Part shown: in pieces, positions 9,055 through 63,993 of the stretch
How the letters are laid out: the number at the start of each line of letters is the position of its first letter
Numbering within the stretch: the stretch's first letter is position 1
Assembly (NCBI GenBank): GCA_035438745.1
Contig: DAORIX010000001.1
Location: forward strand, 3,075-67,074
Length of the DNA: 64,000 bases
Direction of reading: 5' to 3'
DNA from: Minisyncoccota bacterium
GTDB lineage: Bacteria > Patescibacteriota > Minisyncoccia > Phycocordibacterales > UBA6065
Position numbers and translations under genes: made by a program
The notes under the pieces: model-generated
Told to the model about the DNA's origin: nothing
Database searches by the model: none
What the model saw: the letters and a program-made list of their open reading frames with translations, nothing else

Positions 9055-10734
9055 CTATGAAGGAAGTTGATCGAGAGATGACCTGTCCACTTTCCAAATT
9101 TTACGATGAAGCGTTTCGAGCACATCACGAAGCTCAACGCTCTTCAGAACATAGAGAACACCAATAATAATTATGGTGCCGACAATTCCAGCAAGTAGAC
9201 CTTGGAGAAACACACCTGCTACTGTGGATAGATTAAAAATATCATCAAACACATCCAGAGAAAGGTATGCTGTGTATCCACCGATTATCGATGCGCCAGC
9301 GGTATGAAAAAAACTTTTGAGCACCGATCCTGAAAAACCAGCATGCGCACGAGAAAATGATACCCAATGGAGAAGAAGATTGAGGAACGCACCCACAGAA
9401 AATGCCAGAGGCAACATGAGAACAGAAGAATCTCCAGAACCCGATGTTTTCATGAGAGCGGTCACAAAATATTTGAAGAAATCATACTGATTAAACATAC
9501 TCAAGAGGAAAAAAGCCAGAACGATAGTTGCAATCATAGAGGCAACATTCATCAAGAGAGGCTTTGCTGTTTTCCCTTCTGCATAAAAAGAACGCACAAA
9601 AAGGAGAGTGAGACTTTGAGCAAAAGCAGAAACAACAAAGAGCGCAAGCGCAGCGGCCGTCAGTCTCGTGTCAGACCAAGAGAATTCTCCGGAGCCCAAA
9701 ACAGTTCGAACGATCTGTGCTCGCAACACAATAAAAAGAACGGAAAGTGGAATAGCCCAAAAAATAACGTGACGTGCGGCAGATACCATTTTCTGAGTAA
9801 ACACATGAGTATTTTTTTCACTAAACAGTCGTGCAAGAACCGGAAAAGCTGCTGAGGAGTAACTAGCGCCGATAATGGAGAGAGGAACAGACTGAAGGTT
9901 CAAGGCGAAGTTAAAAATAGAAATTGATCCAGCGCCAAGAAACGAAGCAAAAGAAACAAGTGCAATATATGTACATTGCTGAGAAGAAAGGGTTACTGTG
10001 CGAGGAATAGAAAGTAACGCTATGTTTTTAATCTTTGACCACGCAAAAACAAAACGTATTCGAGGAAATAAACCATCCTTAATAACCACGGGTATTTGAG
10101 AGAGAGACAGCAGGAGCGCTCCACATGCCACTCCCCACGCCAAACCTTGAACTCCCCATCGTGGCAAAAAGAAAATAATACCTGCAATAATACCGATATT
10201 GTAGAGAGGTGAACTTATTGCGTACAACAGAAATCTATTTTGAATCTGAGTGAGAGAAGCAAAGAAAGAAGAAAAGCCAAGCAAAATAGGAGAAAGCAAT
10301 AATACTCGTGAAGTGGACACGAGAACGTCTCCATATCCCGCATCAAAAAGCGCAGGGAAAAGAAACTTTTGTAACGGCTCCATAAAAATAGCCGCGACAG
10401 CACACACAACAACTATAAGCACCAAGAAAGAAGAAAAAAGATGCTGAATTGATTCTTTGAGTGATTCTACACCTTTTTGTTTTGCCTCAACGAGAAAAGG
10501 AACGAGTATTGATGTTGATACGAGAGACGCTACCGTGACGAAAATGAAATCTGGTATACGGAAAGCCGCATAGTACACATCGAGCTCTGTTCCCGCTCCG
10601 AGCACATGCGCCAAAAGTCTATCGCGTATAACAGCAAAAACTAGAGACGCAACAGAAGATAATGCCAAAAGATAAGCGGCCTCGTGGAGCCCGCTTATCT
10701 CTTTGCTAACAAATAAAAGAATCTTCTTTACCAT
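9055..10734 (-). CDS. murJ: lipid II flippase MurJ (MviN family)
   Basis: 559 aa, about 14 TM, conserved MurJ N-terminal block (ISGLHEAAYLLALSSVASLVFAVIRDRLLAHVLGAG, FRIPDFIF). Confidence 0.85.
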   Translation of the reverse strand: MVKKILLFVSKEISGLHEAAYLLALSSVASLVFAVIRDRLLAHVLGAGTELDVYYAAFRIPDFIFVTVASLVSTSILVPFLVEAKQKGVESLKESIQHLFSSFLVLIVVVCAVAAIFMEPLQKFLFPALFDAGYGDVLVSTSRVLLLSPILLGFSSFFASLTQIQNRFLLYAISSPLYNIGIIAGIIFFLPRWGVQGLAWGVACGALLLSLSQIPVVIKDGLFPRIRFVFAWSKIKNIALLSIPRTVTLSSQQCTYIALVSFASFLGAGSISIFNFALNLQSVPLSIIGASYSSAAFPVLARLFSEKNTHVFTQKMVSAARHVIFWAIPLSVLFIVLRAQIVRTVLGSGEFSWSDTRLTAAALALFVVSAFAQSLTLLFVRSFYAEGKTAKPLLMNVASMIATIVLAFFLLSMFNQYDFFKYFVTALMKTSGSGDSSVLMLPLAFSVGAFLNLLLHWVSFSRAHAGFSGSVLKSFFHTAGASIIGGYTAYLSLDVFDDIFNLSTVAGVFLQGLLAGIVGTIIIIGVLYVLKSVELRDVLETLHRKIWKVDRSSLDQLPS

Positions 10735-10740
10735 ACGAAC

Positions 10741-13107
10741 CTAGAAATCCTCGTCAGAAACGGTCTCTTCTTCGAGCGGTGGAGTTGCTCGTTTTTCTGG
10801 TCGTGAATCGACCTGATTAGCAAACGGAGACTTGCCCGCTTTGAGATTTGAAAGAATTGTTTTTACTTCTTCATTCTCAGGATTTGAGGCTACGAGATCC
10901 GTAAATTGCGCCTGTGCGCCCTCTTTGTTTCCTACCTGGAAGTAACTCAAGCCGAGAAAGTACTTTGCGTTAGCGTATTGAGGATTGATAGTAACTGCTC
11001 GTTCAAAAGCCTGAATCGAACCAGTGTAATCCTTTTGATTGTATCTGAGAAGACCGAGCTGAAAGAATACTCCTGGATCATTTGGAGAGAGAATTGCGAG
11101 AGCCTCAACTGTCTGGAGCGCCTCAGTAAGTCTTCCCTGTCCGATTTCAATTTGAGAAAGAAGGAAAATACCATCTACGTAGTCACTTTTCTTTTGGAGA
11201 GCAGTACTGATGTATGTACGTGCGCCATCAACATTTTTGTTTGCAACCTCAAGACGAGCAAGGAGCAAATAGAGCTCTGGATTTTCTGGATTCAAAGCGA
11301 TCGCGCCCTCATATGCAGCTTTTGCGCTCTCGTATGAACCCTGAACACCGAGTGGAACCACCGCTTCGTATACACGACCGAGTGCTACGTGGTTTTGATA
11401 ATTAGTCTCATCGTAATTGAGCGCCTCACGAGCTGATTCGATTGAGACACCGAGCACATTCTGAAACTTTTGAGCCATTTCTGTTTGAGAAATTGTGGTG
11501 TCGTTGAGTACATTACTTGTACGTACAAGATACAACTCAGACATAAAGCGACTATAGACGTCACTTGGAGACAATTCAATTGCGCGTGCTATAAATTTCT
11601 CACCCTCATCGAGATTACCGTCTACGTTAATGAGTGTAATACCTTTTTGGAAAGACACATTAGCAATAACACGAATAGTTGTTTTGTAGAGAGCAACTGA
11701 TACTCCGATTATGATAAGGATACAGAGGAGTACTGAGAAAAAGCTTTTTACCTGACTTTCTCCTGAAGAGAATCTGATAGTAGATCCTGCTCCGTGGAGT
11801 ATGACAGAAGAAACGAAGAGGCCGAGCATGAGGAACATCAAAATCCAGAGCACCGGACTTGGAACATACACCACTGAGAAAACAATCAAGTAAAGCGATG
11901 CAAAGAATGAGGAAAGGACGAGGAATGCTGATACAGGCGATCCAGAATCACGAGCAATAAATATCGCCTTGAATGCAGTGAGCAAAAAGAGACCAAGGAG
12001 CAAAGCAATTCCGGCAAAACCAACAAGGCCTGTAGTTACAATAAAGCTTGGAATAAAACCAATACCGTAGTTGAAATCAACGTTCCAGAAAACGGTGTTA
12101 TTTATACCTGCGGGTTTATTGAGAAGCCACTCAGTTTGGAAACGATTTGGTCCAACACCAAAGAGAGCATCCTTTTCAAGGACCTTGCCTGTAATCTCAA
12201 GCGTTGATTCCCATGAAGGACGAACTTCGACTTGAGAAATACCAAACGAACTTGCGATTACATTACCGAGTGTTCCGTTTGTAAAAGCAAAAACACACGC
12301 GAGGATGAGAACAATGAGTGTAATAACCGGAGTCTTTCTCTTGAACTCTCCTGTACCGAGATCTTTCTTTACAGACAATTCATAAATAAAGAACACTGCC
12401 AAAAGAGAAGCAAAGGTAATCCACGCTGTCGGGAAATTAACAACCGCCATAACAAAAAGAGAAATAACGAGCGCTGACCATGCGATAGTTTTGTGGAGTT
12501 TTTTGAGAACAACTCGCTCAAGCGTAATTACTGAGAGAAGTCCGATACAACCAAAGAATGCGCCTAAGTCATTCCACTTACCGATAAGGTTTGATGTTGC
12601 CGTAGTGAGAATACCGAAAGAAAGAAAATCCGCACCGAGGAAAAACCGAAGCACCTGATAGAGACCCACAATGAGAGCAGAGACAAAAAGAACTGTGTAG
12701 GTGTAAAAAACACGTTCTGTTGTTTTTACAAGGAGAGGAGTGAGAAGGAAGAAGAAAACAGAAAGAGCAAAGAAGCTAAGAGTACCTAGTTCAAAGCCTT
12801 GTCCTACAAACGAGCTGGCAGTATTTCCCGAAAAAAGAGTAGCCAAACCATAGGTTACAAGAGACACTATGGCTGAAAGATACAAAAGACTCTTTGGTAT
12901 TTCAAATGAGCCGTCTTTGAGCCTATACAAAGCCCATCCAAAGAAAATAATGAGGATACCGAACATGATAAAGGCAGTCTTTCCTATCTGGAAAGGTACT
13001 GATGCGAAAGGAACAAAAAACAAAGGAGAAAGGAAAACAACTACTTGAAAAATAACAAACAATGCACGGTCAAAAAAACTTACGTTAGTTTCTGGATTAG
13101 TAAACAT
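10741..13107 (-). CDS. Wzy_C (O-antigen ligase/polymerase-like) polytopic membrane domain fused to C-terminal TPR repeats
   Basis: N-terminal 500 aa with 12 or more TM helices; the C-terminal 250 aa holds several 34-residue TPR-like units (A..G.Y...A...L..P...). Paralog of 29254..31455. Confidence 0.75.
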   Translation of the reverse strand: MFTNPETNVSFFDRALFVIFQVVVFLSPLFFVPFASVPFQIGKTAFIMFGILIIFFGWALYRLKDGSFEIPKSLLYLSAIVSLVTYGLATLFSGNTASSFVGQGFELGTLSFFALSVFFFLLTPLLVKTTERVFYTYTVLFVSALIVGLYQVLRFFLGADFLSFGILTTATSNLIGKWNDLGAFFGCIGLLSVITLERVVLKKLHKTIAWSALVISLFVMAVVNFPTAWITFASLLAVFFIYELSVKKDLGTGEFKRKTPVITLIVLILACVFAFTNGTLGNVIASSFGISQVEVRPSWESTLEITGKVLEKDALFGVGPNRFQTEWLLNKPAGINNTVFWNVDFNYGIGFIPSFIVTTGLVGFAGIALLLGLFLLTAFKAIFIARDSGSPVSAFLVLSSFFASLYLIVFSVVYVPSPVLWILMFLMLGLFVSSVILHGAGSTIRFSSGESQVKSFFSVLLCILIIIGVSVALYKTTIRVIANVSFQKGITLINVDGNLDEGEKFIARAIELSPSDVYSRFMSELYLVRTSNVLNDTTISQTEMAQKFQNVLGVSIESAREALNYDETNYQNHVALGRVYEAVVPLGVQGSYESAKAAYEGAIALNPENPELYLLLARLEVANKNVDGARTYISTALQKKSDYVDGIFLLSQIEIGQGRLTEALQTVEALAILSPNDPGVFFQLGLLRYNQKDYTGSIQAFERAVTINPQYANAKYFLGLSYFQVGNKEGAQAQFTDLVASNPENEEVKTILSNLKAGKSPFANQVDSRPEKRATPPLEEETVSDEDF

Positions 13108-13228
13108 ACTTCTTGTATCTCTATAAATACTGCTAATAATGTCTCATTATTATAGATGACACGTGAGCATATAACAATGTGCACAAATACACAGAAAACA
13201 TCCACCCGTTAAGGTGGATGTTTTCATG

Positions 13229-13584
13229 TTGTAAGCAAGCTTATAAGCCGAATTCTGTTCTTGTCGTAAAACAAGCGATAATTATTTATCTAGGATGTAC
13301 GTTGCCGTACACCTCAAGCGACTCTCCTCATGCACGAAGCATGAGGCACGGTCTTGCACTCAAGTAAGGGTTTTGCCGTTGCACCTCCTTTGTTACCAAA
13401 GGATCTCATCCCCGAAGGGATGCTGTTGTTCATTTCGAACACCAGCGTCTCTGTTCGCACCTCGAGTATTTCTCTCGATAGGTATTACCTACTACCCTGC
13501 TCCCGCTATTAAACGGGGAGTGTTCGGACTTTCCTCACCTCACATCTATTGCTAGATACGGGGCGCAATTATCAAGCTTACCTC
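13229..13584 (-). ncRNA. rnpB: RNase P RNA (rnpB), bacterial type; ends approximate
   Basis: Minus strand carries the P4 5' strand GAGGAAAGTCCGAAC and the P4 3' strand ACAGAATTCGGCTTATAAGC, plus GGTAACAAAGGAGGTG. P1 is GTAAGC/GCTTAC. A TATAAT -10 lies 7 nt upstream and a hairpin plus T-run terminator (13197..13224) downstream. The overlapping + ORFs 13179..13367 and 13295..13555 are spurious. Confidence 0.8.
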
Positions 13585-25548: not shown

Positions 25549-28086
25549 TTATTTTTGTGTCCACCCATCAGCCAAATAATCACTCAATTTTTTCCACTTC
25601 ACTTCCTTTTCTTCGCCATTTTTTACAACGACAACCTTTTCATTTCTACCTTTCTTTTCTTCACCAGAGACACGTTGTGTGCTACCTGTAGATGAAATAA
25701 TACGAGCCGCGTCTTCCATCTCTGCGCGCGCTTTTGCTTCATGAACATCCACCGTAGCTCCCAAAGAAGGGATAACACTAATAACATGAGCATTAATCGA
25801 TACAATAAGGTTTTTGAAAAGCAGAGTGCTCTCCTTTTTGTACTCAACGAGAGGGTCACGTTGACCATACGCTCTCAAATTTACTGAGCCACGCAAATAA
25901 TCCATAGCCTCAAGATGCTCCACCCACAACATATCTATAGTCTGCAAAAAAAGTGCTCGCACGTGTTTAACAAAAACATCACTGCCCATAGTTTTTTTCT
26001 TTTCCTCAATTTTTGAGAGAAAATCAGCGTCGTTAGGATCGAGAATACTGTCTAGCTCTGCGAGCACGTCAGCATCAGAACCAAGGAGCATTTTTGATCG
26101 ACGAGTATACACTGTTTTTCGATGTAAATTCATTACGTCGTCATATTCCAAAACATGTTTACGTGCATCAAAGTTGAAACCTTCGATACGATTCTGCGCC
26201 GTCTCAAGAGACCGGTTGATAATACCGTTCTGAATTGGTTCGTCTTCGGGAATACCAAAACGTCCCATCATTCTCTTGATCGTGTCCGAAGCAAAGACAC
26301 GCATAAGAGTATCCTCAAGGGACACAAAAAACTGCGTCGCACCCGGATCGCCCTGCCTACCAGCACGACCACGAAGCTGATTGTCGATACGCCTTGCCTC
26401 ATGTCGTTCGGTTCCTAGAACAAAAAGACCTCCCGCTTCTTTTACCTGCGCATATGCTTCTGGAGTTGCGGGATTACCTCCGAGTTTGATATCAACTCCT
26501 CGTCCCGCCATGTTCGTAGCAATAGTCACCGCACCGAATCGTCCCGCCTGAGCAATAATTTCACCCTCACGTTCATGATTTTTTGCGTTGAGTATTTCAT
26601 GCTTCACACCCTCAGTGCGCAAATACGCAGAGAGCAACTCGTTCTTTTCAATTGATGCTGTTCCAATCAAAACAGGCTGACCTTTTTGATTGAGCTTTTT
26701 TACAGCCTTTGCGATAGCTTTAAATTTACCAATTTCAGTTTGAAAAATAAGATCATCATGATCAATACGGGCAATGACTTTGTTAGTAGGAACAACAATA
26801 GTGGTGAGTCCATACACCTTAAAAAACTCTTCCGATGACGTCTCGGCTGTTCCCGTCATACCGGACAACTTTTTGTAGAGCCTAAAATAATTTTGATAGG
26901 TAATAGATGCAAACGTTCGCGTCTCCTGTTCTATACGTACACCCTCCTTTGCTTCAATAGCTTGATGAAGACCTTCTGACCATCTACGGCCAGGCTGCAT
27001 ACGTCCTGTAAATTCATCTACGATAACTACCTGCCCATCACGCACCACGTATTCTTTGTCTTTATGAAATAGTGCTTTTGCACGCACTGCGGTCTGTAGA
27101 TGGTGTACATATTTCACACCTCTATCAGTATAAATATTTTCAACTCCAAGAGCTTTTTCTGCAGCCTCAATACCTTTTGTAGTGAGAATAACTGATTTGT
27201 GTTTTTCTTCAACGGTATAGTGCTCATCTTTTTTGAGCGTTTCTGCAATACGCGCAAACATTGTATAAAAAGCTTCTGAATCACTTGCCGGCGCAGAAAT
27301 AATCAAAGGGGTACGTGCTTCGTCGATTAAAATAGAGTCTATTTCGTCAACAACGGCATAATTAAAAGGCCGCTGTCGTAAATCTTCCTTACGATAACAA
27401 ATATTGTCTCGAAGATAATCAAATCCAAACTCGCTGTTTGTACCGTAGGTAATATCAGCCTGATATGACTCTCGCCTGCTCACCGGTCGCAAAAACTCAT
27501 GCATCACCTTAAACGATCCCACTTCATCACGCGTCACATCGAGAGGATCACGTGACCCTTCTGTTGTTTCTGTTTTTTTACCATGAAGTGGATCATATAC
27601 GTATGATTCATTATGTCCCACAACACCGACAGAAAGACCGAGAAAATTGTATACCTGTCCCATCCACACGGCGTCTCTGCGAGAAAGATAATCGTTTACG
27701 GTAACAACATGAACACCGAGTCCTGTCAGAGCATTCAAGTACACAGGAAGCGTTGCCACAAGCGTCTTTCCTTCTCCTGTTCTCATTTCTGCAATACCCG
27801 CATGGTGAAGTATTGCTCCTCCGATAATCTGAACATCAAAATGTCGCTGACCGAGCGTTCTCTTTGACGCCTCCCTCACCACAGCGAAAGCGCGTGGCAA
27901 CAGGTCATCGAGAGATGTACCCGAAGCAAGAGCTTTTTTAAAAGAGGTGGTTTCCTCCCGAAGAGCACTATCAGACAATGCCGCTATCTCAGCTTCAAGA
28001 GCGTTCACACGCGGAACAAGGGCCTCATAAGGCTTGAGATTCCGTGCGTTTTGATCTCCAAATAGTTTCTTTAAGAATGAAGCCAT
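25549..28086 (-). CDS. secA: preprotein translocase ATPase SecA
   Basis: MASFLKKLFGD N-terminus, Walker A (MRTGEGKT), DEAD-like motor blocks, HWD/HSD scaffolds. Start at 28086 preferred over 28146; no C-terminal zinc finger. Confidence 0.9.
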   Translation of the reverse strand: MASFLKKLFGDQNARNLKPYEALVPRVNALEAEIAALSDSALREETTSFKKALASGTSLDDLLPRAFAVVREASKRTLGQRHFDVQIIGGAILHHAGIAEMRTGEGKTLVATLPVYLNALTGLGVHVVTVNDYLSRRDAVWMGQVYNFLGLSVGVVGHNESYVYDPLHGKKTETTEGSRDPLDVTRDEVGSFKVMHEFLRPVSRRESYQADITYGTNSEFGFDYLRDNICYRKEDLRQRPFNYAVVDEIDSILIDEARTPLIISAPASDSEAFYTMFARIAETLKKDEHYTVEEKHKSVILTTKGIEAAEKALGVENIYTDRGVKYVHHLQTAVRAKALFHKDKEYVVRDGQVVIVDEFTGRMQPGRRWSEGLHQAIEAKEGVRIEQETRTFASITYQNYFRLYKKLSGMTGTAETSSEEFFKVYGLTTIVVPTNKVIARIDHDDLIFQTEIGKFKAIAKAVKKLNQKGQPVLIGTASIEKNELLSAYLRTEGVKHEILNAKNHEREGEIIAQAGRFGAVTIATNMAGRGVDIKLGGNPATPEAYAQVKEAGGLFVLGTERHEARRIDNQLRGRAGRQGDPGATQFFVSLEDTLMRVFASDTIKRMMGRFGIPEDEPIQNGIINRSLETAQNRIEGFNFDARKHVLEYDDVMNLHRKTVYTRRSKMLLGSDADVLAELDSILDPNDADFLSKIEEKKKTMGSDVFVKHVRALFLQTIDMLWVEHLEAMDYLRGSVNLRAYGQRDPLVEYKKESTLLFKNLIVSINAHVISVIPSLGATVDVHEAKARAEMEDAARIISSTGSTQRVSGEEKKGRNEKVVVVKNGEEKEVKWKKLSDYLADGWTQK

Positions 28087-28163
28087 AAAAAGTGTATAGA
28101 TAGCAATTCTAGCATGTAGTACGCCTTGCGTACCACAAAAAAGCATGATGAATACCCGAGCGC

Positions 28164-29177
28164 TTAAACGAGTTCAACCTCACGTTCTATAGTGATACCT
28201 GTCGAATCATATACCTTTTTTTCAATAGCGCGTGCAAAAGCATCTATCTCGTGAGATGGTGTTTCTTTATGCGCAACAAGTACCAGTGGTTGTTTCTCAA
28301 ATAGTCGACACCGTCCAACCATATAGCCTTTCAAGTGAAGCCCCATATCGAGAATCCATGCGAGAGGAATCTTGTATTCGTTTTCTGACACAGAAAAAGC
28401 CGGAAGCTCTGGCCACAGAACCCTCAACTCATCGAGTTTGGATTTTGAAATAATTGGATTTTTCCAAAATGAACCTGCGGTACCCCACAGAGAAAGTTCG
28501 GGGAATTTCCCCTGACGAATACTAATTACCGCCTCACGAATCTCTCTAAGCGACGGACTAGTGTTTACTCCAAAAAAAGACTGTATGTCCTTATACGCAA
28601 GTCGTGGCGTAGGTGTGCGTGTAAGTCTATATGTAACTGAAAGAATAATCAGATGTTTATGCTCTTTCTTTTTAAAAATACTACTACGGTATCCGAATTC
28701 ACACTCAGAACAAGAAAGTGGTTTGACCTCACCAGAACGTGTATCGAGAACGCGCACAGAATCGATCACATCCTTTATCTCAACCCCATACGCACCTATG
28801 TTTTGTACCGGAGAAGCGCCCACCGTTCCTGGTATGAGCGAAAGATTCTCAAGTCCCCACAATCCATGCATAACAGAATCCTCAACAAACGCATCCCACT
28901 CTTCGCCCGCCTCGGCCGTTACAAAAACAAAAGACCCTTTTTCAGCATAAGAAATACCCTTAGTCCTCACACACATAACTAGACCATCAAAACCCGCATC
29001 CGAAAAAAGAACATTCGAACCACCACCTACTACAAAAAAAGGTATCTGCTGTTTTGTGGCAAAAGAAAGCGCTTTATGTAACTCATCCTCAGTTGTCGCC
29101 ACAGAAAAAAATCGTGCACTCCCTCCCGAACAAAATGTAGTGTACGGCGCGATTTTTACGTTCTCTTCGATAGTCAT
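28164..29177 (-). CDS. murB: UDP-N-acetylenolpyruvoylglucosamine reductase
   Basis: FAD-binding PCMH domain (FFVVGGGSNVLFSD) and MurB C-terminal domain. Confidence 0.85.
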   Translation of the reverse strand: MTIEENVKIAPYTTFCSGGSARFFSVATTEDELHKALSFATKQQIPFFVVGGGSNVLFSDAGFDGLVMCVRTKGISYAEKGSFVFVTAEAGEEWDAFVEDSVMHGLWGLENLSLIPGTVGASPVQNIGAYGVEIKDVIDSVRVLDTRSGEVKPLSCSECEFGYRSSIFKKKEHKHLIILSVTYRLTRTPTPRLAYKDIQSFFGVNTSPSLREIREAVISIRQGKFPELSLWGTAGSFWKNPIISKSKLDELRVLWPELPAFSVSENEYKIPLAWILDMGLHLKGYMVGRCRLFEKQPLVLVAHKETPSHEIDAFARAIEKKVYDSTGITIEREVELV

Positions 29178-29253: not shown

Positions 29254-31455
29254 CTAAGGATTTCTGCCCGCCTCAATTTCTTTTATGTAATACTCACCTT
29301 GCTCTTTGAATGTAGGATCTTTCGCAATAACTTCTCTGATGGTAGCAACCGCACTTCTACGATCACCAGAAGCGAGAAATGTTGCTGCATACTGAAGTCT
29401 GTATTGATTGTTTGATGGGTCTGTATCTAGTCGCTTCTTCCACAAAGCAAGCGCTCGTGACCACTGTTTTGTATCAGTATACGCCCTGATGAGACGATCG
29501 TCCGTAACGAGTGTAGTGCCGTACTTTGACTCAAGCGTTTCTTCTGCTTTTTGCACGTCACCAGAATAAATTGTAGCAATAACATAGTACATAAACGCAT
29601 CTTCATTTCGCACCTCGATCTCGTACGCACGCTTAAACACCTCGAGCGCTTTCGCATAATCTTGCTTCTGCAAATAGAGATTGCCCAACTGATAGAGAAT
29701 ACTCTGTTTGTTTGGAGAAAGTTCGGATGCGCGCAGTGTGTACTTGAGAGCATCGTCAAAAAGACCGTAGTAAGAATAAAATGTTCCTGTAAAAAGCTGA
29801 TAGCGGGCATCGTCAGGAGTATGTTCAAGTTGTTTTGCGAGTTCCGCCTTACCGAGCTCAAAGAAATCCTGCTTCACATTAATCGGAGCAGTTGATGGAT
29901 TGATTTGGCTCACCGCCTCAATAATTCTCTCTCTAATTTCTGACTGACCAAGAGACTCTCTCTTGAGTGCGTCCTTGAAATCCACCACCGCAAGAGCGCC
30001 CATTTGTCCCGCATCCGTACCTAACTTTCTCAAAGCCTCAATAAGAGACCGAGATGCCGCATACGCCTTGAAGTTAACGAGATAAAGGATGACCACGAGC
30101 ATAACAACACAGGCCGGTAAAATGATTTGCTTAAAATCATCATCTCCCACTTCGGTGTCTACGCGTGAAAGTTTGTGAGAAGTTACCGCTACACGCCCGT
30201 GTATATATGCGAGCATAGTAACAAAGATCATGTAGCTCGTGAGATTGTCGAATACAAAAAAGTTATGTATGAAGTACGCAACAAAAAGTCCAGACATCAC
30301 ACTTTTTTCTGTAAATGAAAATGTTTCCTCGGAAGACTTCCACAAACTCCACAGTGCGCTACCGAACAAAAAGAGATACGCAAGGAGACCGAAAATACCT
30401 CCTGCTATAAGCCAATCAAATACAACATTGTGAGTACGATCAAACCACTGTTCCTGAGCATACATACCCGGATTGTAGTATTTGTTAAAAACATAGCTGA
30501 AATTTTCCTGACCCCATCCTAGAATCGGGCGCTCCTTGAAACCTTGCCATGCCATATCCCACACCATAAAACGCGACTTAGTAGTTCCATCATTAAGCGA
30601 GATCGAGGCAAAGCGCGAGAGAACAGGACTTTCGCGAACAAAAGAGGTATTTTTAATGGCCAAGAAACCAAGAACCGTAGCAATACCCAAGCCTAAAATA
30701 ACTCCACAACTAATACGAAGCACTTTATTTTTTCTTTCAAAAATGAGCACGAGAAGAGTCGTCACGCCTATACCCCCAATGAGACCCAAAATCGCACCTC
30801 GAGTTGCGGTGTGATAGAGAATAAATACAAAGAAAAGAGCGAGCACGCTGTATGCATAACCCCATTTCTTTTTCATATCTGTAAAAGAACGCGCCGCAAA
30901 CATTCCTGCAATAAAAATGTTGAAAATCATGTACACCGCGAGATACGTTGCATTGCCGAACGTCGCATCAACACGCACACCTCCTTGATTGATAGTGAAT
31001 TTTCCAAGAAGTTGAGCCACGCCATACAATCCAATACAGAGAGTTGTTCCGAGATATACATTGAGTAGTCGATCCCAAAGTGTTCTTGAAAGCAAAACAC
31101 ATCCAGCCACTACGAAATATACATAGAGATGAAGTATGGTGATGAACCCTTCCATACGCTCATAGTTTGACCAGAATGCCTTGAATGCATTCGGCGCAAA
31201 AGAGTCAGCAATACCAATAATGAGCACGAAGGCAGTAAACGCCCACAAAATGAGAGATTTTTTCGGGCGATACGTGACATCTCTGAGTGCGAGCGCTAAC
31301 CACGCCACGCCAATGATCTCAACAATAATTCTAAATAAAAAATTCTTTCCGGTAATAAAAGGAAAAAACAAACTTCCTGTAACTACAAAAGGAATAAAAG
31401 GAACGGTGAATAAACCGCCCAGAATTATAAAACGCAGAATTTTCTTGAGATTCAT
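29254..31455 (-). CDS. Wzy_C (O-antigen ligase/polymerase-like) polytopic membrane domain fused to C-terminal TPR repeats (paralog 2)
   Basis: About 12 TM helices with Wzy_C-like periplasmic loop (RTHNVVFDWLIAGGIFG) then a 280 aa TPR array (AIEALRKLG..., ALEVFKRAYEIEVRNEDAF...). Confidence 0.75.
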   Translation of the reverse strand: MNLKKILRFIILGGLFTVPFIPFVVTGSLFFPFITGKNFLFRIIVEIIGVAWLALALRDVTYRPKKSLILWAFTAFVLIIGIADSFAPNAFKAFWSNYERMEGFITILHLYVYFVVAGCVLLSRTLWDRLLNVYLGTTLCIGLYGVAQLLGKFTINQGGVRVDATFGNATYLAVYMIFNIFIAGMFAARSFTDMKKKWGYAYSVLALFFVFILYHTATRGAILGLIGGIGVTTLLVLIFERKNKVLRISCGVILGLGIATVLGFLAIKNTSFVRESPVLSRFASISLNDGTTKSRFMVWDMAWQGFKERPILGWGQENFSYVFNKYYNPGMYAQEQWFDRTHNVVFDWLIAGGIFGLLAYLFLFGSALWSLWKSSEETFSFTEKSVMSGLFVAYFIHNFFVFDNLTSYMIFVTMLAYIHGRVAVTSHKLSRVDTEVGDDDFKQIILPACVVMLVVILYLVNFKAYAASRSLIEALRKLGTDAGQMGALAVVDFKDALKRESLGQSEIRERIIEAVSQINPSTAPINVKQDFFELGKAELAKQLEHTPDDARYQLFTGTFYSYYGLFDDALKYTLRASELSPNKQSILYQLGNLYLQKQDYAKALEVFKRAYEIEVRNEDAFMYYVIATIYSGDVQKAEETLESKYGTTLVTDDRLIRAYTDTKQWSRALALWKKRLDTDPSNNQYRLQYAATFLASGDRRSAVATIREVIAKDPTFKEQGEYYIKEIEAGRNP

Positions 31456-31556: not shown

Positions 31557-32327
31557 CTACGAAGAAAGCCCTAACCTAACTGCTTCTCTTTGCATGGCTG
31601 AGACGATATCTGTGCGTTGTTTGTCACGTTTGGACCTCATCGACTCATCATCCTCAATGAGTTGTTCAACTGGATGGACGTAGTCAACGATTACGGAATC
31701 GATGGCTACACCCCCTGTCAGAAACCACAAAAGTGGTATGAACAGGATTTCCCAATTATCACCATAGTGTATCGGTTGATATGCCGCCATTATCATGGCG
31801 GCCTGCCGATTCATGATCCGCGGTCCGATATAAAAATCAATATCGAACCTTTTTGTGATATTGCCAAGCTCCCAATTGGCCCTCAGTTCAGACCAATGCT
31901 GATACTGAGGATACCCATCGAGATTCCGTCGCCGTGGTATGACCACATCGGTAGCGCCCCTCATTACTCGCGCAATGCACGGACCAAGCAAGGGGACAAG
32001 CGTGTATTTTTCCGGCTCAAGCCAGACAAGTACCTCTGCTTCTGTCGCGAGACCAGCATTGAAACATTCGCGACGCGACTGTCCCATACCCGGCTTTTCC
32101 TGATCAATAACGGTTGCTCCAGTTTCCCGGAGAGCTTGTTTGAACTCTTCGCACGGACTACCGTCAATGACGATAATCGGATAATCGTTGTCTCGAGCAG
32201 TACGACACGTTTTAAGTGCCAGCTGTGCTCGGACCTCATCCACGCTTTTGATAAACGTGGTGGTTACCAACACTATTCGATCGTTCACAATTACCTTTCT
32301 TTTGATTATTTTAAGAACTAACCTCAA
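31557..32327 (-). CDS. hypothetical protein, possibly a divergent GT-A fold (GT2-like) nucleotide-sugar transferase; GC-rich relative to neighbours
   Basis: Pattern IVLVTTTF..(30)..PIIVIDGSP..ETGATVI..GMGQSRRECFNAGL..VLVWLEPE parallels the GT2 core, with EPE where DxD is expected. The minus strand is chosen over the antisense 234 aa ORF because the terminator is downstream on the minus strand. Confidence 0.3.
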   Translation of the reverse strand: MRLVLKIIKRKVIVNDRIVLVTTTFIKSVDEVRAQLALKTCRTARDNDYPIIVIDGSPCEEFKQALRETGATVIDQEKPGMGQSRRECFNAGLATEAEVLVWLEPEKYTLVPLLGPCIARVMRGATDVVIPRRRNLDGYPQYQHWSELRANWELGNITKRFDIDFYIGPRIMNRQAAMIMAAYQPIHYGDNWEILFIPLLWFLTGGVAIDSVIVDYVHPVEQLIEDDESMRSKRDKQRTDIVSAMQREAVRLGLSS

Positions 32328-50771: not shown

Positions 50772-51590
50772 CTAGTGATAAAAAGGTGTGGTTTGAGAAA
50801 TATAATCAATCTGAAGACCCCTCTTAACCGCTACGAAATTTGTAAGAGTAAAGCGCTCTTGATCGGGGAAATACTCGACCCTCTCAAGAGAACGGGATTT
50901 CAAACGATACATATCGTACCCATACTGCTCAAAAAATCTCAAGAAGTCACGTAGAAAAAATCGAGACTCCAAAGTTGCCCCAGAAAATTCATACTGTACC
51001 ATGTCGACCATACCTTGTTTGAACATATTTTCTGCGCCTTTCAAAACAAAAAACTCATAACCCTCAACATCCACCTTCAAGAAATCTACATGGCGAATGT
51101 TGTGATCCTTTACATACTCATCGAGAGTAGTCACCTGAACCATAAGTGCTTTTTCTTTTTTATCTTGTTCGTGAATATCAAACAAAGAATTAAAAACCGT
51201 CTTTGAATGACGAAATAGTTGCATCTGGGTCTTTTTCTCACCCACTGCACAATTATTTAAAATGGCTCTTTTTTTAAAGTCCTTCGTATTCGTTTGTAAT
51301 TGATCAAACGCTCTCACGTCTGGTTCAAAAGCATGAACAACCACATCAGGATTGCTCGAGAGAATTTTTCTAGAGTAATCCCCTATATTCGCACCGACAT
51401 CAAAAACCACCTTTAGTTTTCCCTGTAATTTCTCGAGAAGCCAGTATTCACCGTTTGTCTCGCGGTCAAAAGCATTATCCCCATAACAAAAATCAATGTA
51501 TTTACTACAAAACAAAAAAAGCAGTCGAGAGTATCGTGGGTTATTGCGATTAATAAAAATCTTTACGAGGTTTTTTTTAAAAAAATTCAT
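50772..51590 (-). CDS. FkbM-family methyltransferase
   Basis: VFDVGANIGDYS SAM-binding block and FkbM-domain layout. Confidence 0.7.
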   Translation of the reverse strand: MNFFKKNLVKIFINRNNPRYSRLLFLFCSKYIDFCYGDNAFDRETNGEYWLLEKLQGKLKVVFDVGANIGDYSRKILSSNPDVVVHAFEPDVRAFDQLQTNTKDFKKRAILNNCAVGEKKTQMQLFRHSKTVFNSLFDIHEQDKKEKALMVQVTTLDEYVKDHNIRHVDFLKVDVEGYEFFVLKGAENMFKQGMVDMVQYEFSGATLESRFFLRDFLRFFEQYGYDMYRLKSRSLERVEYFPDQERFTLTNFVAVKRGLQIDYISQTTPFYH

Positions 51591-52966
51591 ATAAGTTTTT
51601 GTGGTTTTTGCAGTTTGAGTAGTATAGTACGAAATACTGAAATCAGTCCATAAAGAGCAAAACTTCCAATAAACACCTCCACAGGAACTCTAAACCGAGC
51701 GTTTACTCCAAAACCGTTGATGGCAGTAGTCACAGCAAAATACAAAACCATACAAAGCGCAGTGATGACATACGGTCTTACTTCTTCTTTCCTTAACAAA
51801 AGCCATGCGCCAACACAAAAGAATAGAGCACACACATACCAAAACAATCTCATGAGAATAATAAAGAAAGCGGGGCCGTATACATAATGAGAAATGGCAG
51901 AAAAAAGCTCACCGGGATGCGCAAGAAGAGTAATGACCGGCTTTGCCACCACATTCTCTAAACGAATATCCATATTGCCCAAGATCGTAAGAACCCCATC
52001 ATGTGTAAAAAAGGTAACGAGTGTAATGAGGGCCGATTGTATCAAAGCACTCTTGTGTTCGCGTATGATTTCAAAGGCCTTATCTGTGTACTCTTGAGCG
52101 TTCTCTAATGTAATCGTGTTCGGATCAAAACCATCTTTATACACGAAAGAATTCAGCTCCGTAGCAAAATCTGTGTTGTTATCAATAGCGAGCAGTGTGG
52201 GCACAATATATACATACGCATTGAAAGCAGGTTGCGCACTCATGCCCCACACGCCAAATTCCTGCTTATTACGATACAGCCATGGCATAACAACGAGCGA
52301 GGCAAAAAGTGCAAACAACAAAACATGAAGACAAACTATTTTTGATAGCCTTTTTCGTTCAATAAACAAAAGCCCTAGTGGAACGAGAAAGATAAAGTAC
52401 TGAACCGTAGGTTTAATTAAAATCGAAAGTCCCAAAAAAACAGAAGCCCAAATAATGGCACGAAGTGTTTTGTGCCGTATATAACGGAAGAGAAACAAAA
52501 CAAAACAAAGAAAGAAAAAAGTAAAAGATGTTTCCGTATAAAGTAAAAAAGAGAGCAAAATAGTATAAGGGCTCATGGCCATGAAATAGCCCACGTAACG
52601 CGAAATTTTCTCTGTTACGAAATAACGCGAAATGAGTACGCCTAGTATCGGTATACTACTCGCCATAAGCAATTCACATACAAAAACCAACGGGTATCCG
52701 CCAACTGAGGCAAGCCCTGCAATAATGTAAGGCCACAGAGGAGGCCTCAAGGGATTTGGTCTAAAAGGAGGTTCTGCATCAAAACTGAAGCCGTTACCTA
52801 AAAGAATATTTTGGCTCAGCTCATAGTACCCATCGTCGCCTTTAATAGTAGGTATAAGTTGGTGGTCATTTACAGTAAAATTTACAGAAAAAAGCACCAC
52901 CCTAAGCAGTAAGGCAAAAAGAAAAAGAATGATAAAAAAACGGTATTTTTGAAAAAAATTTTTCAT
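51587..52966 (-). CDS. GT-C fold membrane glycosyltransferase (ArnT/PMT, GT39/GT83-like; polyprenyl-phosphate-sugar dependent)
   Basis: 459 aa, about 11 TM, N-terminal DDGYY-type loop (IKGDDGYYELSQNILLGNGF) characteristic of the PMT/ArnT family first extracytoplasmic loop. Confidence 0.65.
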   Translation of the reverse strand: MKNFFQKYRFFIILFLFALLLRVVLFSVNFTVNDHQLIPTIKGDDGYYELSQNILLGNGFSFDAEPPFRPNPLRPPLWPYIIAGLASVGGYPLVFVCELLMASSIPILGVLISRYFVTEKISRYVGYFMAMSPYTILLSFLLYTETSFTFFFLCFVLFLFRYIRHKTLRAIIWASVFLGLSILIKPTVQYFIFLVPLGLLFIERKRLSKIVCLHVLLFALFASLVVMPWLYRNKQEFGVWGMSAQPAFNAYVYIVPTLLAIDNNTDFATELNSFVYKDGFDPNTITLENAQEYTDKAFEIIREHKSALIQSALITLVTFFTHDGVLTILGNMDIRLENVVAKPVITLLAHPGELFSAISHYVYGPAFFIILMRLFWYVCALFFCVGAWLLLRKEEVRPYVITALCMVLYFAVTTAINGFGVNARFRVPVEVFIGSFALYGLISVFRTILLKLQKPQKLI

Positions 52967-62154: not shown

Positions 62155-63993
62155 TTATTGATTCATATCGAGAATCTTTTTCAAAACATCCTCCGGTACT
62201 TCTTGTTTTGATGATGGTGGAGGGGTAGGTATTTGCTCCTTTGGTTGTGGTTTCGGAATATTTTTTTCACTCGTTGCTGAAATAGCAGAAGTATCAGTTT
62301 TTTCTACCTTAGGAACAACAGAAGCGAGAGCCTGCCGTAAATCGTTAACATTTTTTTGGCTAGGAACTTTTTTTGTATTGTGCTCCAAACCAGAAGTAAT
62401 TGGGGGTTTTGGTTTTAATTCCGTGAGGGAAACAGTCTTTGTAAGGGGAACAAAATCATCGTTATCCTGTGTCTGTAAAACAGGCTTATCGAAAGCTGGA
62501 GGAGCGGTCCTCGGTTCTGTTCTTTTTTGAGCAAAATCAGCAGGAGGGTTGTGAGGATTTCGTTGTGGCTGAGTATCGAGAGGACGAGATGGACGAGTAT
62601 CACGATTAAAAGAGCCTCCGTCCTGTCTACGCGTATCCCTCTGTGGTTCTGAGCCATGTTCTCTACGAGGAAAGGCCTCCTGTCGTTTCTCTACTCTTTG
62701 CTGAGGTGGGTGGCTTTCTTTGTCTACTCCGGCTTGCTTGCGAACTTCCTCTTCAACTCCCGCCCGCTTTGAGGCGTAGGTAAGTCGTGACTGTTCAATT
62801 ATTTTTTCATACTGGGAGACGCTCGGTAATTGGATAGGAGGTAACGTGGTTGCAGAAAAAGGCTGTGAAGATACACCATCAATCATGAGCTTCAAATAAA
62901 TTTGATAGATGCCCAAATTCACAATATCCTCAGCGGTAAATGTTGGCGCAAATTCCTTTTCGAGTACCTCAGCATCAAAAGCTCCCACACGAAAAACGAT
63001 CATCGTTCCAACGTTTCCAAACACGGCAGCACGAACCTCATCTGACATTTGTTCAATATACTGATGAGCGATAGTAAGATTAAGTTTATACTTTCGAGCT
63101 TCAGACAAAATATCTGCAAAAGATTCATTAGCAAAAGACTGGAACTCATCCACATACAAATAAAAATTGGGTAACTTTTTAAGCGCTGCGTCTGAAGCAT
63201 CGGCTCGAGACATTGCGCCGAGATAGATTTTGGTGATAAGCATTGAACCGAGGAGGTTTGCATTCTGCTCTCCCACCCGACCCTTTGAAAGGTTGATAAT
63301 GAGAATCTTCTTCTCATCCATCATTTTTCTAATATCAAATGTTGATTTTGGCTGACCGATAATATTACGAACAAGAGGGTTTGAAATAAACTGACCAATC
63401 TTGTTTTGTATCGCAGCACCAGCCTCTTGCATATACCTCTCACCATATTTAGCAAACTCATCTACCCAAAAAGCCTTCACTGATGGATCAGTGATATTGT
63501 CCACAACTTTTTTACGATACTCCTTGTCGGCAAGCATTCTGTTTACGCCGATGAGTGTTGAGTCTGGATACTCAAGAAGCGCAAGAAGAATGTTGTTGAG
63601 AATATATTCCATACGCGCTGACCACGCATCTACCCATATTTTCTTGAACGCAGACATGAGACCAGAGACAACAAGGTGGCGTTTGTCAGCACCGACATCT
63701 TCCATCACATTAAATGAAATAGGGTGCTCAATATCAAAAGGAGCAAAATACAAAACATCTTTAATACGATGTTCCGGCACATACTGGAGGAGAAGGTCAG
63801 CAGTTTTGCCGTGAGGGTCAATAAAAGCGAGGCCGTTACCATTTTGAATATCCTGCACGGCCATATTTTCAAGAACAGTAGACTTACCCATACCCGTTTT
63901 ACCAATGATGTACGTGTGCCTACTCCTGTCTTTTGACTTAATACCAAAAGGTATTTTTTTATCTCGCGCATCAGTCTGCGCGAAGTATGTCAC
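62155..63993 (-). CDS. VirD4/TraD/TraG-like type IV secretion coupling-protein ATPase (FtsK/HerA superfamily) with disordered C-terminal tail
   Basis: Walker A IIGKTGMGKST, Walker B FYLYVDEFQSF, TIAHQY motif; about 170 aa P/Q/R/E-rich low-complexity C-terminus. Confidence 0.6.
   Translation of the reverse strand: MTYFAQTDARDKKIPFGIKSKDRSRHTYIIGKTGMGKSTVLENMAVQDIQNGNGLAFIDPHGKTADLLLQYVPEHRIKDVLYFAPFDIEHPISFNVMEDVGADKRHLVVSGLMSAFKKIWVDAWSARMEYILNNILLALLEYPDSTLIGVNRMLADKEYRKKVVDNITDPSVKAFWVDEFAKYGERYMQEAGAAIQNKIGQFISNPLVRNIIGQPKSTFDIRKMMDEKKILIINLSKGRVGEQNANLLGSMLITKIYLGAMSRADASDAALKKLPNFYLYVDEFQSFANESFADILSEARKYKLNLTIAHQYIEQMSDEVRAAVFGNVGTMIVFRVGAFDAEVLEKEFAPTFTAEDIVNLGIYQIYLKLMIDGVSSQPFSATTLPPIQLPSVSQYEKIIEQSRLTYASKRAGVEEEVRKQAGVDKESHPPQQRVEKRQEAFPRREHGSEPQRDTRRQDGGSFNRDTRPSRPLDTQPQRNPHNPPADFAQKRTEPRTAPPAFDKPVLQTQDNDDFVPLTKTVSLTELKPKPPITSGLEHNTKKVPSQKNVNDLRQALASVVPKVEKTDTSAISATSEKNIPKPQPKEQIPTPPPSSKQEVPEDVLKKILDMNQ

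Follow-up and report, generated by a model that had tools for sequence, protein, structure and literature searches.

A WaaL-like membrane domain joined to a tetratricopeptide repeat array beside murJ in Patescibacteria: a possible handler of cell-wall precursors

Introduction

A large part of bacterial diversity, almost all of it uncultured, falls within the Patescibacteria (CPR), whose envelopes are poorly understood. The 64,000-nucleotide stretch of a Minisyncoccota bacterium analysed here (the window) encodes, next to murJ, a protein in which a polytopic membrane domain is joined to a tetratricopeptide repeat (TPR) array, and the question raised by this locus is what such a fusion, the focal protein below, might do beside a homologue of the lipid II flippase. 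A preliminary description of the window had taken it, together with a second gene elsewhere in the window (paralog 2), for a candidate Wzy_C-TPR protein O-oligosaccharyltransferase serving an undescribed surface glycosylation function. The analysis instead tells apart two superficially similar WaaL-fold/TPR families in Patescibacteria, only one of which is a comfortable fit for that role.

Fold and topology of the focal protein

The focal gene is genuine, as a minus-strand ORF of 788 aa fills exactly 10741..13107, and a chance ORF is ruled out by hundreds of full-length homologues together with a high-confidence AF2 model (pLDDT 91.6, pTM 0.87). Members of its family are at present annotated only as 'tetratricopeptide repeat protein'. 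The parts of the gene are:

10741..13107, minus strand: focal gene, from the ORF listing (788 aa; WaaL-fold membrane domain, predicted extracytoplasmic TPR array and short conserved tail)
11626..13107, minus strand: membrane domain, residues 1-494 (13 TM helices, WaaL-like, GT-C_B class)
12571..12636, minus strand: conserved outer loop, residues 158-179, ending in the motif G176-K177-W178-N179-D180
12052..12270, minus strand: large extracytoplasmic loop, residues 280-352, counterpart of the WaaL catalytic loop
10840..11613, minus strand: TPR region, residues 499-756 (14 helices, ~7 TPR-like repeats, predicted to lie outside the cell)
10744..10839, minus strand: C-terminal tail, residues 757-788, semi-conserved (family consensus A-G-K-x-P-F ... 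P-E-K-R-x-x-L-P)

The presence of a TPR array was borne out: Pfam matches residues ~499-756 to TPR_19 (E=7.5e-24) and about 15 other TPR models, among them TPR_2 (E=5e-20), DSSP of the AF2 model finds 14 helices in the stretch 499-756, and this portion matches consensus TPR crystal structures as well as the TPR domain of OGT (E~1e-20) in a PDB profile search and by Foldseek. OGT and TMTC likewise join TPR repeats to a glycosyltransferase-like module, but their catalytic folds (GT-B and GT-C_A, respectively) are unrelated to that of the focal protein and the likeness is limited to the generic, consensus-like TPR. An OGT-style asparagine ladder was also considered and rejected; the conserved Asn-Pro pairs are, as we read them, ordinary TPR inter-repeat turns. 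In the tail that follows, residues 782-788 have a pLDDT <50.

Pfam and NCBIfam scans of residues 1-502 and of the full protein match TPR models only, with no ligase, transporter or SEDS model among the matches. Pfam Wzy_C (PF04932) gives no match to either even at E<=10 and is absent from all 120 best homologues, and Wzy_C_2 (PF11846) and PglL_A (PF15864) are absent at E<=10 from both the focal protein and paralog 2. Neither N-terminal domain finds a match among PDB sequences with phmmer, nor does the focal N-terminal profile at E<=10. It is in three dimensions that the membrane domain resembles the solved WaaL of Cupriavidus metallidurans (CmWaaL; PDB 7TPG/7TPJ), with ~10% sequence identity, and the fold is of the WaaL-like GT-C_B class. 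Class B PBPs are the partners of SEDS proteins, which carry 10 TM helices and no TPR; the structural match of the focal protein to FtsW/RodA is much weaker than that to WaaL, and a Pfam FTSW_RODA_SPOVE match is absent from it. What had been described as a 12-TM Wzy_C domain is thus WaaL-like in fold, but has 13 TM helices and no Pfam Wzy_C signal.

The 13 helices are predicted to run N-in/C-out. Across 117 sequences of the family the positive-inside pattern alternates cleanly, with a mean K+R of 1.1-3.7 in the predicted inner loops; in the five short outer loops it is 0-0.3, the 22-residue loop 158-179 (0.97) being the one exception. In the AF2 model strands 67-72 and 442-447, which come from two 'inside' loops, pair as a small beta-sheet, and TM13 runs on beyond the membrane as a long helix (452-494). 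The C-out topology given by the positive-inside pattern, with the pairing of the cytoplasmic loops, leads us to reject a cytoplasmic TPR array, which is predicted instead to be extracytoplasmic, on the same side as the catalytic-type loop. The preliminary description had proposed as much, and had named a cytoplasmic array or a generic transporter fold as what would speak against its reading; the array is predicted outside and the membrane domain is WaaL-like, not a generic transporter.

This architecture speaks for reading the focal protein as an O-oligosaccharyltransferase that would transfer an undecaprenyl-pyrophosphate (Und-PP)-linked glycan en bloc to Ser/Thr residues on surface proteins picked out by its TPR array. 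The WaaL-class fold is common to PglL, PilO and PglS, and the PglS model has, like the focal protein, 13 TM helices followed by an outward C-terminal domain (PMC12800693). The S-layer O-oligosaccharyltransferase WsfB and PglL have already been reported to combine Wzy_C with a C-terminal TPR, so that the word 'undescribed' was an overstatement (PMC2943079). Literature searches for an O-antigen ligase in CPR/Patescibacteria found nothing specific.

Conserved outer loops and catalytic residues

The outer-face loops and the TPR core are the most conserved parts of the focal family: 31% of outer-loop columns are at least 90% conserved, compared with 5% in inner loops, 10-12% in TM segments and 25% in the TPR core. 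Loops 158-179 and 280-352 each reach 32%. In the first, G176 and W178 are invariant and K177, N179 and D180 are conserved at 90% or more, while the second carries the motifs E294-V-R296-P-S-W299, F-G317-x-G319-P-N-R-F323 and F340-W341-N-x-D344-F345-N-Y-G348. The conserved charged residues on the outer face are R154, K177, D180, E294, R296, K331 and D344.

Such strong conservation of the outer loop would suit an oligosaccharyltransferase; the identity of the residues does not. WaaL residues were mapped onto the focal protein through the paralog 2 and CmWaaL alignments, with CmWaaL numbers taken from a HMMER alignment to 7tpg. R296, invariant in the 117 sequences, aligns with R295 of paralog 2 and hence with CmWaaL R265, so that the loop arginine which binds the Und-PP pyrophosphate has its counterpart here, and the G-x-G-x-x-x-F loop is also retained. 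The catalytic His, in contrast, is missing: the position of WaaL H313, equivalent to PglL H349 and PglS H324 (residue roles from PMC12800693), is occupied by the invariant Phe345 (hhalign) or by Ile349 (gapless register), and no outer-loop column of the family reaches 30% His. The equivalent of CmWaaL R191, the first Arg, of the T-R-G motif, falls on T227, A228 or W229 depending on the register, and the surrounding segment V-V-N-F-P-T-A-W-I-T holds no Arg or Lys. A direct alignment of a CmWaaL fragment to the focal profile, weak at a probability of 9.8% and used solely to check registers for these two residues, yields His or Arg in none of them.

With neither the catalytic His nor an Arg equivalent to R191 in place, any catalysis by the focal family is putative. 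The same absence argues against the oligosaccharyltransferase, as does the lack of any Wzy_C, Wzy_C_2 or PglL_A signal in Pfam; PglL, PglS, PilO/TfpO and WsfB depend on a catalytic His (H324 in PglS; PMC12800693) and bear such signatures, and the focal protein has neither. That the TPR core is so highly conserved further suggests one conserved partner, not many acceptors. Set beside WaaL, then, the focal protein has Phe or Ile for H313, no R191 equivalent, and an additional TM13 with a roughly 300-residue outward TPR domain.

Only one of the three signature catalytic residues is left, and the focal protein could instead be a non-catalytic, WaaL-derived pseudoenzyme, binding Und-PP or lipid II or docking to MurJ while its TPR array organises cell-wall synthases outside the membrane. 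The tight murJ operon (below) and a TPR array that is consensus-like and highly conserved, as is typical of protein-protein scaffolds, are in keeping with such a role. It is nevertheless the former catalytic loop that is most conserved, with E294, R296, T302, K331 and D344 invariant or nearly so, and this exceeds the usual needs of docking, though ligand binding alone could explain it. We consider the pseudoenzyme unlikely, if worth keeping in mind.

The murJ operon

Directly downstream of the focal gene lies:

9055..10734, minus strand: murJ, homologue of the MOP-family lipid II flippase, 6 nt downstream of the focal gene (PF03023, E=1.4e-57)

Against TIGR01695 this homologue scores 193 bits, under the NCBIfam equivalog cut-off of 235.55, and in Pfam it matches MurJ far better than the Wzx-type Polysacc_synt. 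The pairing recurs across the focal family, a separate and large family of Parcubacteria/Paceibacteria found in at least 587 species genomes and numbering 1,194 clusters when the cut-off is set at E<=1e-30. Among the 75 loci that could be evaluated, 71 have murJ as the next gene downstream, on the strand of the focal gene. The median gap is 20 nt, and 51 of 79 pairs are separated by 30 nt or less; the murJ homologues downstream in relatives share 37-52% protein identity, and the genes upstream of the focal gene differ. As read from gene order and the short gaps, the focal gene is co-transcribed with murJ. It should be borne in mind that lepA follows murJ in most of these loci, so that part of the gene order could be due to how slowly a related lineage rearranges, not to function. 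The setting is that of a housekeeping block, with no glycan locus or teichoic-acid genes near the focal gene.

Wzy polymerases, whose fold is of the WaaL-type class, can do without the ligase His, and a polymerase next to a flippase is typical of Wzy-dependent loci. The focal protein might accordingly be a Wzy-type polymerase that, with a Wzx-like MOP flippase annotated as murJ, makes a conserved, lineage-specific surface polymer, the TPR array being an export or chain-handling scaffold. That the flippase falls under the MurJ equivalog cut-off would agree with this, and TPR scaffolds are known in polysaccharide export (Whitfield & Mainprize, as cited within PMC2943079). No glycan locus surrounds the focal gene, and the neighbouring MOP protein is much closer to MurJ than to Wzx. 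Wzy families have no universal sequence markers by which to judge the focal protein. Such a polymerase seems to us very unlikely.

To our knowledge Patescibacteria have no LPS, so that WaaL-like proteins in such hosts need non-LPS acceptors; in this the focal protein differs from WaaL, as it does in having murJ for an operon partner. One such acceptor would be a membrane glycolipid, onto which a ligase might load a conserved Und-PP-linked polymer in a teichoic-acid type of anchoring in a monoderm envelope. There is a precedent in TacL of Streptococcus pneumoniae, a Wzy_C/WaaL-like protein required for the formation of lipoteichoic acid (PMC5727136). A TacL-like ligase would meet with the same missing His and Arg, though, a lipid acceptor would leave the seven-repeat TPR array without an obvious role, and teichoic-acid genes are lacking nearby; this too we hold to be highly improbable.

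Paralog 2 and the glycan locus

The second membrane-TPR gene lies between murB and a glycan locus:

29254..31455, minus strand: paralog 2, a canonical Wzy_C-TPR ligase-family protein (733 aa)
28164..29177: murB, adjoining paralog 2
25549..28146: secA, beyond murB from paralog 2

Like the focal protein, paralog 2 has about 13 TM helices and a C-terminal TPR, and the two are related by remote homology: the focal protein aligns with the Wzy_C-TPR family in hhalign at 91.7% (E=7.6e-7) and 87.7% (E=3.4e-6) over 349 columns. The two differ in other respects. Paralog 2 has a Pfam Wzy_C match (PF04932, 75.5 bits, E=4.9e-21) and the complete Arg/Arg/His set, its R219, R295 and H342 corresponding to WaaL R191, R265 and H313 (family profile against 7tpg, E=2.6e-6; 97.5%), and it sits at the border of the glycan locus next to murB-secA, whereas the focal protein pairs with murJ. 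The order variable glycan locus, Wzy_C-TPR, murB, secA is kept in every genome examined. Between the two proteins BLASTP finds TPR similarity and a weak N-terminal stretch but nothing more, and membrane-domain identity is about 17%. The two families co-occur in the same genomes. The preliminary description was right, therefore, that two membrane-TPR genes occur in the window, one at murB/secA and the other at murJ, but with ~17% identity and membership in separate families they are not close paralogues.

The oligosaccharyltransferase reading fits paralog 2 well, and much better than it does the focal gene, for which it is weak: the focal protein is without the His and Arg, its gene is in an operon with murJ instead of linked to the glycan locus, and a fully equipped canonical Wzy_C-TPR candidate adjoins that locus in the same genomes. 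For the focal protein we therefore regard oligosaccharyltransferase activity as doubtful. The glycan locus also bears on the identity of the flippase. The locus comes with dedicated exporters (Wzm/Wzt in this window, Wzx in relatives), and paralog 2 provides it with a canonical ligase, so that by elimination the murJ homologue is probably the lipid II flippase.

Discussion

Since the catalytic His is missing and the gene is paired with murJ, the handling of cell-wall precursors seems likelier for the focal protein than general protein glycosylation. Our preferred reading, to which we would give a probability of roughly 40%, is that it is a remodelled WaaL-class transferase or handler for the flux of cell-wall precursors and not a general glycan ligase. 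Such a protein would act at the membrane's outer face on an Und-PP-linked substrate supplied by MurJ, the product of the partner gene in the operon; lipid II, or Und-PP species derived from it, would be the simplest choice. From conservation and topology we infer a basic pocket and an alternative catalytic base: the substrate would be held by the conserved outer-face residues R154, K177, R296 and K331, and the conserved acidic residues E294, D344, D180 and E106 might stand in for the lost His. A conserved protein, whether partner or acceptor, would be recruited through the TPR array; cell-wall synthases and surface proteins are examples.

The use of lipid II as a glycosyl donor by enzymes of this class has precedents in WaaL(F332S) and in overproduced PglL (PMC4296511). 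It is tempting to go further and to imagine the focal family as a WaaL-class enzyme that naturally uses lipid II, is universal in Parcubacteria/Paceibacteria and works by Asp/Glu chemistry where a ligase would use His. The MurJ-flipped precursor would then serve to attach peptidoglycan subunits to a protein or lipid acceptor brought in by the TPR array, or else be polymerised by what would amount to a third kind of peptidoglycan glycosyltransferase. We think this bolder version quite unlikely.

Should lipid II or Und-PP prove to be its substrate, the focal protein would be a new player in cell-wall assembly and an instance of the WaaL fold repurposed, its catalytic loop rewired and its gene locked in an operon with a putative lipid II flippase. 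At the least, 'WaaL-like membrane domain + TPR, MurJ-associated' would be a better annotation for it. Paralog 2 is an ordinary candidate for a ligase or oligosaccharyltransferase and anchors the variable glycan locus; glycoproteomics could profitably be aimed at it, and glycoengineering may be a further use. A minor observation concerns the 548-bp gap upstream of the focal gene, which might be taken for a regulatory oddity; it houses the RNase P RNA gene.

Domain architecture and family of the focal protein

The open reading frame lies exactly where the preliminary description placed it, and it encodes a protein with a strong TPR array at residues ~560-760 (TPR_19, E=7.5e-24, and about 15 more TPR models). 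Besides TPR, Pfam and NCBIfam give no match in this protein, and Wzy_C was absent when residues 1-502 were scanned separately against Pfam (E<=10). The features needed here are as follows.

Features around the focal gene, and its paralog
10741..13107, minus strand: focal gene, 788 aa
10744-10839, minus strand: semi-conserved C-terminal tail (residues 757-788), A-G-K-x-P-F ... P-E-K-R-x-x-L-P, after the TPR array; low model confidence
9055..10734: MurJ homologue, 6 nt downstream of the focal gene (PF03023, E=1.4e-57)
13228-13584, minus strand: bacterial RNase P RNA class A (RF00010, 116 bits, E=7e-35), filling the 548-bp gap that directly precedes the focal gene
29254..31455, minus strand: paralog 2, 733 aa, with Pfam Wzy_C (E=4.9e-21) and TPR repeats, adjoining murB and secA

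The tail might serve as a peptide that docks into the TPR groove or onto a partner. With residues 1-500 as query, 256 proteins were retrieved, all of ~780 aa and the same architecture, none containing PF04932 and nearly all annotated only as 'tetratricopeptide repeat protein'; the members with a named source are all Patescibacteria (Paceibacterota, 'Taylorbacteria', Parcubacteria). Relatives occur in at least 587 species genomes, and an exhaustive profile search yielded 3,546 clusters at 50% identity with E<=1e-3 and 1,194 with E<=1e-30. One homologous locus (MHGP01000077.1) belongs to a bin labelled Omnitrophica, and is probably a mis-binned contig because every other named match is Parcubacteria-type.

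By BLASTP, the focal protein and paralog 2 resemble each other in their TPRs (2e-6) and weakly over an N-terminal stretch (3e-4), and nowhere else. Two independent profile-profile comparisons align 349 columns of the focal membrane domain with that of the paralog 2 family (91.7%, E=7.6e-7; 87.7%, E=3.4e-6) at about 17% identity. The domain therefore belongs, as a genuine if distant member, to the WaaL/Wzy_C superfamily, although the Pfam model does not see it, and it is not a generic transporter. Of the proposal that two Wzy_C-TPR paralogs lie beside murJ and murB/secA, the neighbours, the TPR array, Wzy_C in paralog 2 and a distant kinship of the focal domain all stand, but the focal gene has no Pfam Wzy_C match and the two genes are not close paralogues. 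After WaaL, the focal protein has the lipid II polymerases FtsW and RodA as its next neighbours in structure. The focal and paralog 2 families share long contigs (405,985, 129,473, 78,910 and 72,296 bp, for example) and are therefore not redundant copies.

Predicted topology

Across the 13 helices of the focal family, K+R content alternates cleanly between inner and outer loops.

Mean K+R per loop over 117 sequences, loops set by 13 helices
Predicted inner loops: 1.2, 2.9, 2.2, 1.1, 3.7, 1.6, 2.0
Predicted short outer loops: 0.07, 0.28, 0.97, 0.07, 0.0

In the AF2 model, residues 67-72 and 442-447, from two predicted inner loops, pair as a small beta-sheet, an internal consistency check on the topology. 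Together these place the N-terminus inside and put the TPR array outside along with the large conserved loop, so that the extracytoplasmic array foreseen in the preliminary description holds as a prediction.

Pairing with murJ

We fetched 84 loci at 37-52% identity, 75 with enough downstream sequence, and a same-strand murJ lies immediately downstream of the focal homologue in 71 of these. Estimated distances between the two genes have a median of 20 nt, with 51 of 79 pairs at <=30 nt. Upstream neighbours differ (class I or class II RNR, DUF192, others); lepA usually comes next after murJ, so part of the gene order may be lineage inertia. The window's MurJ homologue scores 193 bits against TIGR01695, below that model's cut-off of 235.55, and a rival reading of the pairing is that the two proteins form a Wzy/Wzx-type pair.

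An 86-aa ORF at 13295-13555 (plus strand) overlaps the RNase P RNA gene and is therefore probably spurious. Upstream of the focal homologue at another locus of the family (L002, 174-1543), at a distance of a few kb, lie a reverse transcriptase (RVT_1) and a bAvd accessory gene, a pair resembling a diversity-generating retroelement.

Catalytic residues and possible function

The paralog 2 family profile matches the solved WaaL of Cupriavidus metallidurans (7tpg, E=2.6e-6; 97.5% when the WaaL fragment is aligned directly with hhalign), and in the former alignment R191, R265 and H313 of WaaL fall on R219, R295 and H342, all invariant in the family. The accepted view has the arginines coordinate the pyrophosphate of Und-PP and proposes the histidine (PglS H324) as catalytic (PMC12800693). 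The focal family keeps only the middle arginine (R296, invariant, in E-V-R-P-S-W). The His position falls on Phe345, which is invariant, in the two profile-profile comparisons, or on Ile349 in a gapless register; the R191 equivalent is T227, A228 or W229, and no outer-loop column holds His at >=30%. With His and Arg missing, no link to a glycan locus and a murJ operon, the earlier idea of a protein O-oligosaccharyltransferase (O-OTase) or ligase is weakened for the focal gene, where a true O-OTase would be a rival reading that calls for unorthodox chemistry. For paralog 2, with its complete catalytic set and its place beside the glycan locus, the idea has good support.

The missing residues also raise the possibility of a non-catalytic scaffold for MurJ or cell-wall synthases. 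Columns conserved at >=90% make up 31% of the focal outer loops, 25% of the TPR core, 10-12% of the TM segments and 5% of the inner loops, and the outer face carries conserved charged residues (E106, R154, K177, D180, E294, R296, K331, D344). The outer loop is not decaying, and the site looks remodelled and maintained, not dead.

We propose that MurJ would deliver an Und-PP-linked substrate for the focal protein to handle on the outer face, the simplest candidates being lipid II or its Und-PP product. Conserved basic residues might hold the pyrophosphate, acidic residues might stand in for His, and the conserved TPR array might recruit one conserved partner or acceptor. There is precedent, as lipid II becomes a donor for WaaL after a single substitution (F332S), and for overproduced PglL (PMC4296511). 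That the focal protein is a natural lipid II-using enzyme of the WaaL class is a less likely possibility, whose probability we put at roughly 15%. A further rival to the proposed role is a TacL-like glycolipid ligase (PMC5727136).

The architecture itself is not new: Wzy_C followed by a TPR at the C-terminus has already been described for the S-layer O-OTase WsfB and for PglL (PMC2943079). The fold, its fusion to TPR and the concept of a ligase or O-OTase are likewise known. What is new is the recognition of a large, separately conserved Parcubacteria/Paceibacteria family without the catalytic His that pairs with MurJ and is currently annotated merely as a TPR protein; our literature search found no paper mentioning it.

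Paralog 2 and the glycan locus

With more than 6,000 matches, the paralog 2 family, annotated 'O-antigen ligase family protein', is larger than the focal family. As in the window, its homologue lies between a variable glycan locus and murB-secA in all three distant genomes compared, where the exporter is Wzm/Wzt in one and a Wzx-type flippase in two. A donor-promiscuous ligase or oligosaccharyltransferase would be expected to hold just such a conserved position at a variable locus.

Glycan features in the window
32664-62015: glycan biosynthesis region, ~29 kb
51587-52966, minus strand: PMT_2-type GT-C glycosyltransferase (E=3.4e-7), within the locus

The region, whose layout recalls S-layer glycan loci in Geobacillus and Paenibacillus, encodes enzymes of GDP-sugar modification, and its products include GDP-mannose 4,6-dehydratase, an epimerase/reductase, a DegT aminotransferase, Wzm, Wzt with a Wzt_C domain, several methyltransferases, many glycosyltransferases, GT2/GT4/GT11 enzymes among them, and an Asn-synthase homologue. 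This is an ABC-transporter-dependent pathway, and pathways of this kind require a ligase, not a polymerase. The PMT_2 protein is a possible second candidate for an enzyme that transfers from a lipid carrier onto proteins or glycans.

In the interval from paralog 2 to the locus there are two overlapping candidate ORFs of about 250 aa each, 31557-32327 (minus strand; no Pfam match at E<=10) and 31617-32321 (plus strand). At the window edge, adjoining the glycosyltransferase cluster, a 612-aa protein (62155-63993, minus strand) gives weak matches (E~1e-7) to TraG/VirD4/TrwB-type coupling proteins and HerA-like ATPases.
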